Positions 4,635-12,721 of a stretch of 17,397 nt of DNA are shown piece after piece; position 1 is the stretch's first letter, and each line of letters opens with the position of its first letter. Under the pieces are notes generated by a model. The model did not search any database. It saw only the letters and a program-made list of their open reading frames with translations, and was not told where the DNA came from. Location of the stretch: the NCBI GenBank assembly GCA_035250975.1, contig DATFEP010000044.1:1-17397 (forward strand), read 5' to 3'. Origin of the DNA: Nitrososphaeraceae archaeon. GTDB lineage: Archaea > Thermoproteota > Nitrososphaeria > Nitrososphaerales > Nitrososphaeraceae. The translations under genes and the position numbers were made by a program.

Positions 4635-5618
4635 TTGTTTAAGGATCTTTCAAAAAATAGAATAGATAATAAAAAGCCGCGAAAAGAGGGTTTAACTTAC
4701 ATTATAGACAAACTATCATCACTTGATAAAGATACCTTTGAAATTTTATCACCAGAAATAGATATGGTAAAAATTTACAATGTATTTCCATTATTAATGT
4801 CAGAATCTCAATTAGCAAAACGAATTACCTTCTATCATGATCTAAATATTCCTGTATCCACAGGAAGCACATTCGCAGAATATGCTATAATGAATAAATC
4901 ACTTGACAATTTTGTAAAAGATGTTTCTAAGATGGGATTTGACATCATAGAGATAGGAGAAAGTCATGTAGACTTGACTCTGGAGCAGAAAGAAAAAATC
5001 CGTGAAATGATATTATCCAATAGCTTAGAGATCCATTGGAAAATAGGAAAAAAGGATCCACGCCATCAACTTGGAGTAAGCACCATAATTACAAAGATAG
5101 AGGAGGCAATAAAAGTTGGAGCAAATAAAATAATTTTAGAAGCCAATCAGGGATATAATGTAGGCATATATGATGAAAACGGTCTAGTAAAATGGACTTT
5201 TATTAGAGCCATTACAGCTAAGTTTCCACCAAGTACATTTATTTTTGAAGCTCCTCTTGAATCTCAACAATCTGCATTATTAGCCGAATTTGGTGAACGA
5301 GTGAATCTGTCAGAAATAGGAATAGAATTTCTGGCATCAATAGAATCGCAAAGATTAGGATTTTTATCTAAATCAAGTTTCAGTTTAACATATCTTAAAC
5401 CACCAGATGGTGGACCAGCATTAAAGTTTGTGTATTATATAATCAAAAATAAAAATCCAATAGATCAAACAGAATTGATCAATCTAACTCATATGCCAAG
5501 AAGAACTGTTCAGAGTGCGTTGGATGAACTTTTATCTCAGGGTCTGATATCTGAAAGGTCAAGTTTAGATGATGCAAGAAAAAGAGTATATTATCCTATT
5601 CAATCTGATTGGCTTTAG
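4635..5618 (+). CDS. ComA (phosphosulfolactate synthase)-like TIM barrel fused to a C-terminal MarR-like winged HTH
   Basis: aa 1-245 carry ComA-family motifs KPRKEGLTYIIDK, IDMVK, GST, EI, GKK, IILEA, GIYD, IFEAP..SQQ, FG..VNL and ESQRLG. aa ~261-321 (PALKFVYYII...QTEL...MPRRTVQSALDELLSQGLI...DARKRVY) form an archaeal MarR-type wHTH. TTG start. Confidence 0.9.
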   Translation: MFKDLSKNRIDNKKPRKEGLTYIIDKLSSLDKDTFEILSPEIDMVKIYNVFPLLMSESQLAKRITFYHDLNIPVSTGSTFAEYAIMNKSLDNFVKDVSKMGFDIIEIGESHVDLTLEQKEKIREMILSNSLEIHWKIGKKDPRHQLGVSTIITKIEEAIKVGANKIILEANQGYNVGIYDENGLVKWTFIRAITAKFPPSTFIFEAPLESQQSALLAEFGERVNLSEIGIEFLASIESQRLGFLSKSSFSLTYLKPPDGGPALKFVYYIIKNKNPIDQTELINLTHMPRRTVQSALDELLSQGLISERSSLDDARKRVYYPIQSDWL

Positions 5619-5778
5619 ATTCAGTTCTTATTTTCGTACACATATGAACTATTTTCTTGAAACTATCAATATTTGCTGGTTGTAATTTATCGGTAATAGA
5701 TGTTATGCCCTCTTGACGTGGCTTTTTAACATCTGTATGTTCTAAAGCTAATATTTTGTTAAACATTAATTTTGACAT
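5596..5778 (-). pseudogene. Truncated N-terminal fragment of a second ComA-like paralog
   Basis: KKPRQEGITSITDKLQPANIDSF aligns with KKPRKEGLTYIIDKLSSLDKDTF of the neighbour. Similarity is lost after ~45 aa and the ORF runs 23 bp into the 3' end of the comA-HTH gene. Confidence 0.75.
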
Positions 5779-5799: not shown

Positions 5800-5807
5800 T
5801 TATTAAA
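5800..5807 (-). promoter_or_regulatory. Putative TATA box (TTTAATAA) for the comA-like fragment
   Basis: Lies 22-29 nt upstream of the ATG at 5778 on the minus strand. Confidence 0.35.
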
Positions 5808-6132
5808 TAGGCAGAAAATGGATCATATGCAAAAGTTACGTGTATAGTACTAAATAATTTTCTATAATAAAATTTGTACCGTTGTAATATTTTAGAAATT
5901 GAATAAAGGCATGAATGATGTAAGTTTTAATATTTAGTTTTTTTAAAAAATAAAATTTTTAATTCATTAAAATGGGGAAGGATTATCTTTCTTTACAATA
6001 ACAATAATCTAAAAAAAAGCTATTAGACTTGCTTATTGAACTTCTCTTATTGGATGCCAATTTTACATATATTTGAATTTTTAAGCACATTTGAATTGAA
6101 TTAAATATAATGAGATGTAATCAAAGGAAAAG

Positions 6133-6918
6133 ATGTACTGCAAAAATGATTATTCCAACCCGAAAGTATACCTGGATTTAAAAGAAGTATCTAAAAATTT
6201 TTTATATACAAATTCTAATAGGATGAACGTTGTATTAGAAAATGTAAATGTTCAAATTTTAGATGGTGAATTTGTTACAATTCTAGGGAAATCGGGTTGT
6301 GGGAAGACTACACTCCTTAATATAATTGCAGGTTTTGAAAATTCATTTGGTGGAGAAATACTACTTGACGGACAACCAATTCGAAATATTAGTCCAGATA
6401 TGGTAATGTTATTTCAAGAATCTGCGCTTTTTCCATGGCTTACATCCTTCCAAAACATAGATGTTGCCTTGAAAATGGCAAAGATTCCAAAGGATCAAAG
6501 AGAACAAATAATAAAACACTACTTGAAGATTGTTGATTTAACGGATTATTCGCATTCATATATTCATCAACTTTCAGGAGGCATGAAACAACGAGTCTCT
6601 CTGGCTAGGGCGCTCGCGTTAAATCCTAAAATTTTACTTATGGATGAGCCATTTGCTGCTTTAGATATTTCAATTAAAAACTCTCTTTACAAAGAGCTTT
6701 TAGAGTTACATAAAAAAACTAGAAAAACAATACTATTCGTAACTCACAATATTAACGAAGCTGTATTGTTGGGAGATAGGGTTATATTAATGTCTCCAAA
6801 ATTATGCAGTATAAAGAAAGAGTATATTATTGATATGCCTAAGGATGAAAGAATCAATAATCCAAATATCAAAAATTTAATTGACCAAATTACCTTGGAT
6901 TTATATGAAAATGAATAA
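6133..6918 (+). CDS. ssuB: ABC transporter ATP-binding subunit, NitT/TauT (SsuB/TauB-like) family
   Basis: Walker A GKSGCGKT, FQESALFPW, signature LSGGMKQR, Walker B LLMDEPFAALD and H-loop FVTHNINEA. Confidence 0.9.
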   Translation: MYCKNDYSNPKVYLDLKEVSKNFLYTNSNRMNVVLENVNVQILDGEFVTILGKSGCGKTTLLNIIAGFENSFGGEILLDGQPIRNISPDMVMLFQESALFPWLTSFQNIDVALKMAKIPKDQREQIIKHYLKIVDLTDYSHSYIHQLSGGMKQRVSLARALALNPKILLMDEPFAALDISIKNSLYKELLELHKKTRKTILFVTHNINEAVLLGDRVILMSPKLCSIKKEYIIDMPKDERINNPNIKNLIDQITLDLYENE

Positions 6919-6947: not shown

Positions 6948-7772
6948 TTGGAATCACAAATACAAAGTAGTAAAAAAAAATATAATCTAAGTAAAAGCAT
7001 AGTAAACAAGGATACATTAAGTTTAATAATTTTTATCGTAGGTTTCTTAGCTCTATGGCAATTAGTTTACATGTTAGAAATATGGCCAAAAGTATCTCTA
7101 CCATCGCCGTTTGCGGTGGGACAGACAATTGTAGATTTATTATTGGATTTCACATTAGTTAAAGGTACAGCGATTTCACTATGGAGGTTATTTTTAGGTT
7201 TTCTAATGTCTATTTCAATAGGATTAATTGTAGGTTTGATCATGGTCAAGTTTTTACATTTTGGAAAAACTATGAGTTCATTTGCTTTAGGTTTGCAGTC
7301 ATTTCCAAGTATTGCTTGGATTCCATTTGCTATTTTATTAATAGGCTTTAACGATTATGGAATATTGTTCGTAGTTGTTATGAGTTCTGTTTTTTCAGTT
7401 ATGCTCTCAACGTATAGTGGGATTCAAAATATTTCTCCAATATATATAAAAGCTGCCAAGAATATGGGTGCAAAGGGATTTTCATTATTTAGATATGTAT
7501 TGATCCCTGCTGCCACTCCTTCTTTGATTATAGGTATGAGGCAGGCATGGTCATTTGCTTGGCATGCATTAATTGGTGCAGAAATGCTAATAACAACCCT
7601 TGTCGGATTAGGTCACATATTATCCGTAGGAAGAGAATTCTCTAATATGAGTCAAATAATTGCAACCATGTTGGTTATATTTGCAATAGGTTTAGTCTTT
7701 GATAGATTCGTGTTTTCAAAAATCGAAGAAAAGGTGCGCAATAGATGGGGACTAAATCAGCAGCAGAATTAA
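6948..7772 (+). CDS. ssuC: ABC transporter permease, NitT/TauT (SsuC/TauC-like) family
   Basis: About six hydrophobic helices, LPSP, QSFPSIAWIP, EAA-like loop KAAKNMGA and W..LIGAE. Confidence 0.9.
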   Translation: MESQIQSSKKKYNLSKSIVNKDTLSLIIFIVGFLALWQLVYMLEIWPKVSLPSPFAVGQTIVDLLLDFTLVKGTAISLWRLFLGFLMSISIGLIVGLIMVKFLHFGKTMSSFALGLQSFPSIAWIPFAILLIGFNDYGILFVVVMSSVFSVMLSTYSGIQNISPIYIKAAKNMGAKGFSLFRYVLIPAATPSLIIGMRQAWSFAWHALIGAEMLITTLVGLGHILSVGREFSNMSQIIATMLVIFAIGLVFDRFVFSKIEEKVRNRWGLNQQQN

Positions 7773-8056
7773 TAATAATATTTTCAAAGAAAATTTATTT
7801 ACTAATAATAAATGGTTAATAGATGATATTAGATATGACCTTGATAAATATTATGTCACGATTACAGTAAATTATGTTTATAAAATATATTATTTATTCT
7901 ATTTATTCGCAGATTCAGTATAGATACATATCTTGACTTGAAAACAATAACCTTCAAATGCTATCCTATTGTTCTCAAGATTGTCTACTCAATTTTTTAG
8001 TTAGTTAATGGAAAAAAATGCATATAAATGTCAAATTATGCGTATTCAATAGCATT

Positions 8057-8083: not shown

Positions 8084-9157
8084 ATGCACAAAAAAATTAG
8101 ATCCAGTGAAAATGCAATCCTGTTGATTAGTCTAGCAGTAATGATCCTTTTTCCAATATTACAACAATCATTTTCTCAGACAGGGGATAAAAAAATATTA
8201 AGAATTGGTTATTTCCCGAATATCAATCATGCTCAAGCAGTAATAGGAATAGGAAATGGAGATTTTCAAAAAGTATTAGGTAATAATATTGAAATTAAGT
8301 CTCTTGTATTTAATGCAGGTCCTTCTGCAATAGAAGCGTTATTTGCCAAACAAGTCGATGTTACATATGTCGGACCAAATCCAGCTATTAACGGATATGT
8401 TGTGTCAGGTGGTGAAGATATTAGGATAATATCAGGTGCCTCTAGTGGAGGAGCAGTATTCATTATTAGAGCTGATTCAGGTATAGAATCTACCAAAGAT
8501 TTTGCAAATAAGAAATTTGCATCGCCTCAACTAGGTAACACTCAAGACGTAGCGTTGAGAACTTACCTATTAGATAATGGATTTAAGACGACAGAAAATG
8601 GTGGAAATGTTACCGTTTTACCTGCAAAGAATCCAGATATAGTAACATTATTTCTGAAAAAGGAGATTGATGGCGCATGGGTTCCAGAGCCGTGGGGAGA
8701 ACGATTGATTAAAGAAGCTAACGGAAAATTATTCTTGGATGAACGTGATTTATGGCCTGATGGAAAATTTGTAACTGGTCTAATTGTTGCAAGATCCGAA
8801 TATCTAAAACAGAATCCTGATGTGATCGAAAAATTTCTTAAAGCTCATGTAGAAGAGAGTCAATGGATAAATAATAATAAAGAAGAAGCAGTAAAGGCTT
8901 TTAATACTGAACTCAAGAAGTTAACTGGACAGACAATACCAGAAGACACCTTGAAAGAATCATTGACAAGGCTCGAACTAACTTATGACCCCATACAACA
9001 ATCTCTATACAAATCGGCTAATGATGCTTTTGATATAGGATTTCTTGGAAAAACAAAACCTGATCTTTCTAATATATTTGATCTAAATATACAGAACAAA
9101 ATATTAGAAGAAAAGGCTGTAGTTAGCATAAATAGTACGACTAGTAACATATCCTAA
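8084..9157 (+). CDS. ssuA: ABC substrate-binding protein, aliphatic-sulfonate SsuA family
   Basis: Signal/anchor helix, then LRIGYFPNINHAQA, FNAGPSAIEAL, YVGPNPAIN, ASPQLGNTQDVALR and DGAWVPEPW, resembling Bacillus-type SsuA. Confidence 0.88.
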   Translation: MHKKIRSSENAILLISLAVMILFPILQQSFSQTGDKKILRIGYFPNINHAQAVIGIGNGDFQKVLGNNIEIKSLVFNAGPSAIEALFAKQVDVTYVGPNPAINGYVVSGGEDIRIISGASSGGAVFIIRADSGIESTKDFANKKFASPQLGNTQDVALRTYLLDNGFKTTENGGNVTVLPAKNPDIVTLFLKKEIDGAWVPEPWGERLIKEANGKLFLDERDLWPDGKFVTGLIVARSEYLKQNPDVIEKFLKAHVEESQWINNNKEEAVKAFNTELKKLTGQTIPEDTLKESLTRLELTYDPIQQSLYKSANDAFDIGFLGKTKPDLSNIFDLNIQNKILEEKAVVSINSTTSNIS

Positions 9158-9165
9158 AAATAGGT

Positions 9166-9384
9166 TTGCTGTCAATGTTACATAGGACAAATACAACAAC
9201 ATTAAAAAATCTTGCTGGAAAGATACTTTCTGTCATCTTTCCAGTTTTTTCCTTGTTATTCCTGTCATTTCTTTTCGTAGTAACTATTTACGAAACTTGC
9301 ACCAATGATCATTCAAGTGAAAAAACCTATCAACTAGAACTTTGTAAAAAATATGGAGTACTTCAAATGGATGATTGTCTATAA
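9166..9384 (+). CDS. Possible small membrane protein
   Basis: Starts 8 nt after the ssuA stop and has one hydrophobic segment plus three Cys; no recognised motif, may be spurious. Confidence 0.25.
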   Translation: MLSMLHRTNTTTLKNLAGKILSVIFPVFSLLFLSFLFVVTIYETCTNDHSSEKTYQLELCKKYGVLQMDDCL

Positions 9385-9914
9385 TTTAATTGCATTTGAA
9401 ATTATGAACTCGATAAATGTTGATATATTATCCGGTGCCTCTCGTAAAAGTTTTTATTTTTATACATCGTGTTATAAACATAATTAGATAAACAACCTCA
9501 TTCAATGATATACATATTTTGTAGATCATAATTTTGTTGATTTTTTGATAAAAGAATTTTAATTATCAAATTTTCAATTTTAATTTTAGGGTAATACATT
9601 GTAACAAAATTTTTCAGTAGTGAATCTACACGTGTTTTATATGCAGAAAAGTACAGAGTGGTTGGTAACAAGTCCATTTTGGATACGTGCAGAATCAAAA
9701 CTTTAAATTAATTTCTATATATCTAAAATCATTTAGTTTCATTTAATAGAAGTTATTAAAACAAAGAAAATACAATTATATAATAAATAATTATGATTTC
9801 AAGTTTTTTGATAACCATTCTATAAATATTATCAATTTTGTGGTTCTGGTTTAGTTTTTATTCAACTCTAAATCTTGTTAAAAAAAAATAAATATTTATC
9901 TAAAAATGAGTAAG

Positions 9915-10024
9915 TAATCTATACTATGAATTAGGGTAGGATATTGTGTGATCTTTATCCTACTATATAATACTACTGCCATCACATTGCTAACTAGATA
10001 GCAGTGCTCAGATAGTATAGTAAT
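9915..10024. mobile_element. MITE-like 102-bp element with terminal inverted repeats and flanking direct repeats
   Basis: Perfect 9-bp inverted repeats CTATACTAT (9919-9927) and ATAGTATAG (10012-10020), flanked by TAAT on both sides (9915-9918, 10021-10024), with two internal 8-bp hairpins. Confidence 0.5.
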
Positions 10025-10157
10025 ATTTTCACAGATAATTAATATATTTATATATTATCAATATTATTTATAATATAAACTATAGTAACAATAAAACTGT
10101 TAATAGCGCTATAATGCTAAAATAAAGAGGTAAACGATATTTTCATGTTTAAGGAGT

Positions 10158-11366: not shown

Positions 11367-11698
11367 TAATATAGTTATATTATTTTCTAGAATGAAATAT
11401 TATAGCAAATCGTAAAGTTTGCATAGATACACTTCATTTTATAGTCACACAAGGAGATACAAGACCAAAGAATAACTTTCAAAATGTTAAATATAGTAAG
11501 AATTAACAGCGAAATCAAAATACAACTTAAGACACAAACGCCTTAAGAAGAAGAACTTATTTTTGTTTATTTATATTATTTAGTAATTAAACATCAGAAA
11601 AAATATATTTGTTAATATATCTTTAATTATAATTTCTTATATATTGGTTTTCGTTTCTTTGCTTTTTTTTGTAGTTATTATTTTTCTTCAAAATAGAT

Positions 11699-11854
11699 CT
11701 AAGTGAAATGTCGATTAACTACTCCGACTAGCAAGTAAATAATAAATCCAAGTGAAAAGGCAGAAAAAGCATGACTAATTATTTTTGATTTTATGTTCTT
11801 AACTAATTTTAATCCAATTCTGTCATCTGAAAATCTAAATGTTATTCGGGACAT
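11699..11854 (-). CDS. Possible 51-aa single-pass membrane protein (not in ORF track)
   Basis: Manual translation MSRITFRFSDDRIGLKLVKNIKSKIISHAFSAFSLGFIIYLLVGVVNRHFT; basic N-terminus, C-terminal hydrophobic helix, TTTTAATA about 20-25 nt upstream. Confidence 0.35.
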   Translation of the reverse strand: MSRITFRFSDDRIGLKLVKNIKSKIISHAFSAFSLGFIIYLLVGVVNRHFT

Positions 11855-12227
11855 ATCTAATATTATTAACTATTAAAAAATCAATCTATTATGGATTTTT
11901 CTATTTTTTTCTAATTTTATATTACATATATTTTTTACTGACAATTTTATTAGAAGAATATTAAAAGGCTTTTTTTATTTTTCCAATTCATCTTTTATCT
12001 TTAATCGAATTTTTTATTTATCAATATTGAATTTTATATATGAAGAACAATTGTAGTGCAATTATATATACATAATAGATTATATTTCAATCCTGTTCTT
12101 TTTCGTATAATAATATTATTTATCAAAAAGATCTACTTCTACCTTTGAAAAAAGTAATTACCCTTGTAATCACAGTCGATTGATAAACTTACTTAATGGA
12201 TGTTTTATATAAAATAAATTTGATCTT

Positions 12228-12546
12228 AGGGACCATATGTGTATCTATGTATAATACATTTATTCCATACTTTGTATGAATGATTTGAATAACCTTTTCT
12301 TGTACAAACACACTCCTTTCTTCGCAATGCTGATACCATAGATTCCTTTGTGGACTGTTTCAATAATAATTCCGGTCCATATATGTTTATGAGCCCCATT
12401 GTATTTTTGTTTGATCTATTGTACATAATTATTGGAAACAAAAATAAAAATGTAAAAACAATCAAAGTATTCTATTTCGCATGAAATCGAACATATATCA
12501 GATTCAAAATTAATAGCTAAATGGATGTCATTAAATTAACAGAGAC
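12228..12546 (-). mobile_element. Degenerate IS6-family (IS240-like DDE) element remnant with one terminal inverted repeat
   Basis: Minus-strand fragments IDQTKIQWGS* / IWTGIIIETVHKGIYGISIA / ERSVFVQEKVIQIIHTKYGINVLYID match the recalled consensus IDETxIxxG..xWxWxxIEP..K..LGIxISxERNMFVAExF...KYG...VxTDGG. GTCTCTGTTAATTTAA (12546-12531) resembles IS6 ends (GGYWCTGT). Confidence 0.7.
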
Positions 12547-12721
12547 AGAAAACAGTCTCAGCTATCTTAAGAAGAAAATAACAATAGTTGAAGATATTTT
12601 TGAAAATATTCCATTCTGGATTAAGAAGAATTTATTAATTTCGGTTTATTAATCTCCTTACCTAACAAAGTCAGAAGATTTATACTATAATAAAAATTAA
12701 GAAATATTTGAAAAGTACATT

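Follow-up and report, generated by a model that had tools for sequence, protein, structure and literature searches.

Does the gene at positions 4635-5618 of a 17,397-nucleotide (nt) stretch of DNA from a Nitrososphaeraceae archaeon (GenBank assembly GCA_035250975.1, contig DATFEP010000044.1; the whole stretch is called the window here) encode phosphosulfolactate synthase (ComA), the enzyme after which its homologues are named, or a protein of another kind? A first-pass annotation of the letters had described a ComA barrel joined to a winged helix-turn-helix (wHTH) domain in one open reading frame (ORF) and had suggested a sensor derived from an enzyme. Our follow-up, in which all evidence is computational, would add the ComA barrel to the known class of enzyme-derived one-component regulators. 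In this soil ammonia-oxidising archaeon the window gene most probably serves as a gene switch that senses a metabolite, the annotated enzyme function being much less likely, and we lean, with reserve, towards a switch that regulates the neighbouring sulfonate-type uptake genes. The gene and its two domains are placed as follows.

4635-5618, plus strand: gene of paralogue A, a ComA-barrel and wHTH protein of 327 amino acids (aa) with a TTG start

4668-5366, plus strand: ComA-type TIM barrel, aa 12-244, from Pfam, phmmer, the structural model and the alignment

5415-5597, plus strand: MarR-like winged helix, aa 261-321, from the structural model, structure matches and conservation

The TTG start agrees with the N-termini of the homologues. 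Pfam family PF02679 covers aa 12-244 (E 2.1e-60; 204.6 bits against a cut-off of 25.2; profile positions 4-241 of 243), and an AlphaFold model built from a 105-row alignment (predicted local distance difference test, pLDDT, 89.8) displays an eight-stranded barrel at residues 21-240, a linker of low confidence at 248-253 and a helix-helix-helix-strand-strand unit at 261-321. The modelled barrel superposes on ComA of M. jannaschii (1qwg; template modelling (TM) score 0.86, root-mean-square deviation (rmsd) 2.6 Å, 29% identity in the structural alignment) and on the phosphosulfolactate synthase of B. subtilis (1u83; TM score 0.84, 24% identity in the structural alignment). Pfam, the model and the structural matches thus bear out that a complete ComA barrel and a MarR-like wHTH share one ORF. 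A word-index search gave 1022 relatives, the best 120 of which are 312-359 aa long with 98-100% query cover; the architecture is conserved in these full-length homologues. Where a name is given, it is phosphosulfolactate synthase, with Nitrososphaera or Nitrososphaeraceae as the source and Ca. N. gargensis Ga9.2 among them; this is the plain annotation that had been expected. Many genomes hold two paralogues, both full length and with the tail: A shares 54-61% identity with the window protein, B 38-41%.

In Pfam, aa 267-315 match eight wHTH families narrowly below their cut-offs, among them MarR_2 (25.9 vs. 27), MarR (21.5 vs. 24.6), HTH_43 and TrmB, and relatives pass such cut-offs (paralogue B, MarR_2 27.6 vs. 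27; P0139, TrmB 32.9 vs. 25.6; P0152, TrmB 27.9). Modelled alone (pLDDT 92.3), the tail finds as its top Foldseek matches the DNA-binding cores of MarR-family proteins, including DNA-bound MepR and ST1710 (TM score over the query, TMq, 0.77-0.85; rmsd 1.0-1.7 Å). Since its ~65 aa (helix 261-273 to strand 317-321) cover less than half of each MarR target (~40-48%; TM score over the target, TMt, 0.36-0.48), the MarR dimerisation helices are absent. Helix 3 opens with PRRTVQ, the wing carries D-x-R-x-x-x-Y, and both the P-R-R-T-V/I-Q start of helix 3 and the wing arginine are near-invariant; mean column conservation among 120 clade A representatives is 0.82 for the tail vs. 0.80 for the barrel. 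Beyond the wing, the extreme C-terminus P-x-Q-S-D/E-W-L (window 5598-5615) is kept throughout clade A at low model confidence; it may be a docking segment for the barrel or for a partner.

A similar tail is found on a second kind of protein. The NAD kinase of the same genome (334 aa; G000:C56, L016 2789-3793, minus strand; NAD_kinase_C 82.7 bits) ends in a winged helix 30-34% identical to that of the ComA-wHTH protein, and 32 of the order's 41 genomes have a matching frame (332-379 aa). That a housekeeping enzyme bears this type of tail, that the window tail scores under the Pfam cut-offs and that the gene is frequently found within an ABC operon or as its last gene (a permease gene followed by A in 10 of 80 loci) would suit a metabolic enzyme whose tail is a protein-docking or oligomerisation module, with the synteny described below reflecting a shared pathway in which the enzyme processes the import. 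We consider this improbable, since the top structural matches are MarR DNA-binding cores, several of them solved on DNA, the start of the recognition helix and the wing arginine hardly vary, a conserved, phased box element stands in promoters beside ComA-wHTH genes, and divergent regulator-operon layouts are common (21 of 80 loci).

We turn to the barrel. In the phmmer alignment to 1qwg_A the changes KFGWGT to KIYNVF, GGT to GST, EISDG to EIGES, EVGKK to KIGKK, EGRESG to EANQG, NLAN to NLSE and LRRGL to QRLGF are seen, while GKK and FEAP are retained. The motif substitutions listed by the first-pass annotation can therefore be recognised, with two qualifications: DKG to DKL is sensitive to gap placement, and the end of LRRGLRGDT falls outside the phmmer alignment, where a MAFFT comparison backs R244 to L and T247 to S. 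Stand-alone ComA was represented by 66 proteins, in which 48 alignment columns reach a conservation of 80% or more; the window protein agrees with 32 of these columns (16 mismatches, counted by hand). From these, 32 pocket-side columns (strand ends and the loops that follow) were picked by hand, mainly hydrophobic and N-terminal columns being dropped; the window protein matches 21 of them and paralogue B 10-11, and 64 of the 66 stand-alone proteins match at least 23, a comparison that is somewhat circular, as the consensus was drawn from the same 66 proteins. In the model, the mismatches G78S, S108G, G110S, E136K, R171N and N227E are located at the ends of strands or in the loops that follow. 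Retained residues include R16, D25, K46, E82, E106, K140, E169, E205, Q212, N224 and R240.

The replacements are themselves fixed. Among the 120 clade A representatives we find S78 in 120, G108 in 117, N110 in 118 (the window has S at this position), K136 in 118, N171 in 120 and E227 in 116, which argues that the pocket was remodelled and then held by selection, with no decay. The claim of a "degenerate", repurposed barrel stands in so far as canonical residues are replaced; judged from the alignment, 'degenerate' is the wrong word for a clade A pocket that appears to have been remodelled under selection.

How far does this pocket depart from that of an enzyme? The strong Pfam ComA match and the database names speak for an ordinary phosphosulfolactate synthase serving coenzyme M or sulfolactate biosynthesis, as annotated. 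We regard this as very improbable: the NCBIfam equivalog TIGR03849 (arch_ComA) is not reached (157 bits vs. a cut-off of 280), conserved residues are altered, the extra wHTH domain is conserved, and ComB (PF04029) has no match in the window's own genome (94.6% complete), while control genomes were matched. A second ComA is likewise not found in this genome.

A bifunctional trigger enzyme is a more serious contender, although we still think it unlikely. Its barrel would still catalyse a ComA-like reaction (sulfite addition to phosphoenolpyruvate (PEP), the reverse, in which a phospho-sulfonate gives off sulfite, or this chemistry with a changed substrate), and the wHTH would couple occupancy by substrate or product to transcription of the uptake genes, for which the riboflavin kinase/regulator RbkR, discussed below, is a precedent. 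The 21 kept pocket-side positions, to which D25 and the retained residues after it in the above list belong, favour it, as does the fact that the changed positions are fixed and not drifting. In addition, a sulfite/nitrite reductase is present in the genome, by which released sulfite could be assimilated. On the other side, E136K, R171N and N227E replace residues with a conservation of 97%, 83% and 97% among stand-alone ComA proteins, the equivalog score is well under its cut-off, the ComB search came back empty, and paralogue B, the direct partner of the transporter in relatives, has lost FEAP and GKK besides most of the pocket-side positions. As regards downstream chemistry, TauD was not found and SsuD-like matches are far under the cut-off (best 69 bits vs. 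518), so that no desulfonation route can be named.

The distribution of the family bears on the order of events. Among 41 related genomes, near-full-length copies were found in 17 of the 25 that belong to the genus (the window's own included), with one split copy besides, and in 3 of the 16 from the order's other families; in three high-quality genomes of the genus (97-98% complete) the barrel was not matched. An exhaustive search of 50%-identity representatives returned 707 relatives. The tail was surveyed in 89 representatives of 235-360 aa and five added sequences: 23 carry it and 68 do not, two of the latter being dropped as probable fragments of the fusion family to leave the stand-alone set of 66. 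In a quick maximum-likelihood tree of the barrel, unrooted and from a short search, a starred branch (96) separates all 23 fusion proteins and one 246-aa row, probably a fragment, from 65 stand-alone proteins. A and B group together (100), with B inside A on a long branch (0.93), and a starred clade (95) encloses A and B and, among its other members, fusions with 25-29 of the 32 canonical positions.

Near-canonical fusions, some with 28-29 of 32 positions, thus exist in basal fusion clades. By database name such fusions come from Thaumarchaeota/Nitrososphaerota, Thermoplasmata and Thermogymnomonas acidicola, a cultured species, and they are annotated as phosphosulfolactate synthase; one of them is divergent from an SsuABC-like operon. 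As a correction to the first-pass annotation, it was not through the loss of canonical residues that the fusion arose. The simplest reading of the sequences is that the fusion came first, that the pocket was remodelled afterwards, and that duplication and further loss in B followed. The same near-canonical clades speak for an enzyme that also regulates.

What the protein might regulate is suggested by the genes beside it, three of which follow gene A on the same strand.

6133-6918, plus strand: ATPase of an ABC transporter, closest to the nitrate/sulfonate/taurine group, from profile matches

6948-7772, plus strand: ABC permease, SsuC/SaoP-like, from profile matches

8084-9157, plus strand: substrate-binding protein (SBP) of the SsuA family, from TIGR01728 and structure matches

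An SsuA-family SBP (TIGR01728, 199.1 bits vs. a cut-off of 163.5), a permease and an ATPase in one cluster make up an importer of the SsuABC (NitT/TauT) type. The best profile matches are SaoP/SsuC for the permease and SaoA/NtrCD/TauB for the ATPase, all under the equivalog cut-offs. Since the nearest solved relatives of the SBP are TauA, SsuA and NrtA, a sulfonate-like substrate class is the putative assignment.

Synteny was counted over the fetched spans of the best 80 genome loci of clade A (Nitrososphaeraceae). At least one SsuABC-like gene lies in the span at 61 of these 80 loci and within 700 bp at 48. The SBP gene is divergent from A at 21 loci, a permease gene precedes A at the 10 already mentioned and A precedes the SBP gene at 6, and others remain, with at least seven distinct arrangements in all. 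That the linkage persists through so many arrangements indicates that it is maintained through rearrangement. Together with the conserved promoter element described below, this synteny upholds the sulfur-type link proposed at the outset. Genome G038, from another family of the order, has a near-canonical fusion gene and, divergent from it, an operon of SBP, ATPase and permease genes. This is the divergent SsuABC-like neighbourhood again, and it suits a protein that both catalyses and regulates.

The Thermoplasmata fusions, with their near-canonical pocket, are set differently. A short-chain dehydrogenase/reductase (SDR) gene lies 3' of the fusion gene in most of 80 metagenome loci, and in the one locus examined (L104 4503-7951) a type I phosphodiesterase-family gene lies upstream. 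Such pathway-like surroundings agree with a trigger enzyme, and this clade may represent a sulfolactate-type pathway independent of ComB and ComC with a self-regulating enzyme.

Some further observations concern the neighbourhood. Rhodanese-like sulfurtransferase genes, judged by eye from translations, adjoin gene A in some relatives (L015 1436-2314, plus strand; L062 10585-11847, minus strand), a loose further link to sulfur metabolism. Metatranscriptome contigs from four soil libraries of three studies match parts of gene A and of the ATPase, permease and SBP genes at 93-99% identity; being short, from near relatives and open to DNA carry-over, they are at most a weak hint of transcription, and stretches that no contig covers carry no information. 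Elsewhere in the window, positions 9158-10157 and 11367-12721 (1.0-1.35 kb) hold no ORF of at least 90 aa, and tRNA and Rfam scans of the window gave no match, in these two gaps as elsewhere.

Upstream regions of SBP genes share two TGCRYAT boxes (TGCRYAT-N13-TGCRYAT), 20 nt from start to start. Directly after box 2 comes a AGCAGTATTA-type element, read as a putative BRE/TATA (TFB recognition element and TATA box), and the SBP start codon follows 25-45 nt beyond. Three sites of this kind were recognised in the window.

8019-8045, plus strand: perfect two-box element TGCATAT-N13-TGCGTAT, 65 nt (from its start) before the SBP start codon

6064-6090, plus strand: weak two-box site with two mismatches and 20-nt spacing, beginning 69 nt before the ATPase start codon

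5807-5831, minus strand: vestigial boxes of a paralogue B promoter, TGCATAT-N11-TGCCTAT, at 18-nt spacing, ahead of a stub of B

Just downstream of the 8019-8045 element stands the TATA-like TTCTTATATA. In a 97%-identical relative (genome G016) the counterpart of the 5807-5831 boxes lies 41 nt upstream of an intact B gene. For a wider count we used 78 loci, both 97% relatives being left out, and pairs at 19-22 nt with at most one mismatch. A pair is present in 21 of 45 distinct SBP upstream regions, and over the 1.69 Mb of these loci, with both strands counted, 74 sites were found, 46 of them with a spacing of exactly 20 nt. Among the 74, 27 are upstream of and co-oriented with an SBP gene, 13 are upstream of A in the opposite orientation, 5 precede ATPase genes, 3 precede the recurrent genes for a 216-aa protein and a DUF326 protein, 3 fall within genes and the other 23 elsewhere, in part at the ends of contigs. 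The window's own 2.49-Mb genome contains three strict matches, of which 8019-8045 alone is intergenic; five block-shuffles of the genome gave 0, 0, 0, 3 and 1. The other two strict matches lie in or beside unrelated coding sequence and were taken as chance.

Other candidate signals were set aside. Palindromes in the AT-rich intergenic regions of the window amounted to many low-quality repeats with no usable signal, and 6-8-mers such as ATATGCA were dropped, being at or below expectation genome-wide (the genome has 29% GC). The dyad ATATGC-N7-9-GCATAT is specific to the A promoters of Nitrososphaera relatives (42 sites in 11.3 kb vs. 13 in 820 kb, counted in the same sequences from which it was derived); it was not used for the window, being absent from the window's A promoter and present only once upstream of ABC genes.

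The stub ahead of the ATPase gene adds a piece of history that the first-pass annotation had overlooked: paralogue B, more degenerate than A and in relatives the gene paired with the transporter, has been deleted down to its first codons in the window.

5653-5766, minus strand: stub of paralogue B, its first 38 codons, inside the 60-aa ORF 5596-5778, from comparison with G016

The 60-aa ORF is the N-terminus of B running into the complement of the 3' end of A. In G016 the order is A, a 216-aa gene, a DUF326 gene, a 141-aa gene and B on the minus strand, followed by the divergent ATPase-permease-SBP genes. Measured against this relative, ~4.9 kb (L014 4067-8940 in G016), from just past the A stop to codon 38 of B and including the three small genes, is deleted in the window, with the junction at ~5650-5653. 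The second 97% relative has the 216-aa gene, and a near-full-length B was not found in it. A is hence the only family member remaining beside the transporter in the window. At least 12 genomes of the genus have B immediately next to the SBP gene, and with its pocket so altered it is, on its sequence at least, predicted not to be an enzyme.

The small genes lost in this deletion recur elsewhere. The 216-aa protein, which matches nothing in Pfam (L014 4490-5140, minus strand), and the DUF326 protein, 117 aa long and rich in Cys and Met (L014 5436-5789, plus strand), are encoded near ComA-wHTH and SBP genes also in L018, L025, L048, L049 and L093, and both are absent from the window. In G016 a two-box site lies 50 nt upstream of the 216-aa gene. 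They are possible members of the same regulon.

What the analysis shows, and what a mechanism can be built on, is a conserved architecture, the synteny with importer genes, a pocket that was remodelled and became fixed, and an element conserved in promoters. The regulator would be descended from phosphosulfolactate synthase, its ComA barrel serving for oligomerisation and holding a small-molecule pocket that has been remodelled. With the MarR-like winged helix at its C-terminus, which lacks the MarR dimerisation helices, it would read TGCRYAT boxes that lie in phase on the DNA helix, at a distance of 20 bp, and shortly precede the TATA boxes of the neighbouring importer genes; in the window these would be the site at 8019-8045 before the SBP gene and the weaker one at 6064-6090 before the ATPase gene. 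Occupancy of the pocket would alter DNA binding and in this way tune the uptake of an organosulfonate-type substrate. A likely ligand would be an anionic sulfur or phospho-carboxylate metabolite akin to the substrates or product of ComA (sulfite, PEP or a (phospho)sulfolactate-like sulfonate). Both this ligand and the loss of catalysis in the window protein are inferences. The position of the boxes upstream of TATA suggests activation and would also be compatible with interference in TFB/TBP recruitment. That direct repeats, not palindromes, suit wHTH domains on a non-dimeric scaffold is speculation.

Several points weigh against this regulator. From adjacency alone we infer that the ComA-wHTH protein binds the two-box element, and another factor could do so. 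The element was defined and counted on the same, mutually related loci; the site in the ATPase promoter has its two mismatches, the pair in the B promoter is spaced 18 nt and not 20, and the window's own gene A promoter has neither the box pair nor the dyad seen in the Nitrososphaera relatives. Many residues of the catalytic face are kept in the window protein, so that catalysis is still possible, and since NAD kinase bears a similar wHTH tail, the tail could have another role than sequence-specific DNA binding. An SBP or permease homologue was found in 0 of the 80 Thermoplasmata metagenome loci (L099-L178), and the setting of those fusions beside SDR and phosphodiesterase-family genes looks like a pathway. 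Finally, ComA is described as a homotrimer (bioRxiv 10.1101/2024.10.15.618377), an unusual scaffold for a wHTH regulator.

A more detailed version of the proposed switch is offered tentatively, and in full it is rather doubtful. Here a pseudoenzyme on the homotrimeric ComA barrel would be a sulfur-status sensor of soil ammonia-oxidising archaea. A pocket with lysine for glutamate and the compensating changes of arginine to asparagine and asparagine to glutamate would bind sulfite or a C3 sulfonate without turnover, and the flexibly tethered wHTH domains of one oligomer would read direct TGCRYAT repeats two helical turns apart and activate organosulfonate uptake. Living lineages would then span the way from an active enzyme-regulator (Thermoplasmata and basal Nitrososphaerales clades) through a pure sensor (A) to a ligand-blind or differently tuned partner (B).

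Ammonia-oxidising archaea are major players in soil nitrification, and to our knowledge few specific transcription regulators, and no sulfur-responsive one, have been described in them. The ComA-wHTH family is a concrete candidate regulator with predicted target genes and a predicted operator. The annotation can also be corrected for at least hundreds of proteins that are named phosphosulfolactate synthase in organisms without the remaining pathway. Moreover, the family offers a graded natural series for how an enzyme turns into a sensor and prompts the question of how winged helices carried by a trimeric TIM barrel are brought to DNA.

No characterised regulator with this architecture had been known to the first-pass annotation, and our literature searches, which omit most subscription journals, likewise found no publication on it; comparison must therefore be made with systems that share one feature or another. 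The nearest in fold are ComA of M. jannaschii and the phosphosulfolactate synthase of B. subtilis (1qwg, 1u83), which have the same barrel as the window protein. Unlike it, they are stand-alone proteins of ~250 aa without a wHTH and have the canonical glutamate, arginine and asparagine where the window has K136, N171 and E227, and the stand-alone ComA pathway includes ComB, which the window's genome appears to lack. MarR-family proteins (MepR, ST1710, BldR) have the helix-helix-helix-wing core that superposes on the tail at 1.0-1.7 Å. They are, however, ~140 aa long and dimerise by N- and C-terminal helices that are absent from the 65-aa tail, and they bind their ligand between the dimerisation lobe and the DNA-binding lobe, whereas in the ComA-wHTH protein the ligand site is proposed to lie in the fused barrel. 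In function, the proposed sulfur-status switch resembles CysB and Cbl, which control the ssu and tau operons of E. coli; these are of the LysR type, with an unrelated fold and sensing domain. Plant HSA32 is a ComA homologue whose biological role, so far as known, is other than phosphosulfolactate synthesis; it is eukaryotic, has no DNA-binding domain and acts on HSP101 stability (bioRxiv 10.1101/2024.10.15.618377).

The closest likeness is to regulators that are themselves enzymes. In the trigger enzymes BirA, NadR and PutA (PMC5397151), an enzyme fold and a DNA-binding domain share one polypeptide and metabolite occupancy sets transcription; they are bacterial (BirA with presumed archaeal orthologues) and catalytically active, and their fold is unrelated to ComA. 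RbkR, the archaeal riboflavin kinase/regulator, combines an enzyme domain with a wHTH and controls genes of biosynthesis and of an uptake transporter as well as its own gene; it occurs in Thaumarchaeota too, and its operators were predicted by comparative genomics and later tested (PMC5397151). Its C-terminal kinase domain, which the DNA-binding domain precedes, has kept the substrate residues and is proven to be active, and RbkR binds palindromic operators as a dimer (PMC5397151). In contrast, the ComA-wHTH protein has its wHTH at the C-terminus, a TIM barrel of a homotrimeric family, a remodelled pocket and candidate direct repeats 20 bp apart. What the two have in common is an archaeal metabolic-enzyme domain fused to a wHTH and the regulation of uptake genes, proposed in the case of the ComA-wHTH protein (PMC5397151 for RbkR). 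As in the RbkR type, an enzyme-homologous and a predicted DNA-binding domain are held together in one conserved polypeptide.

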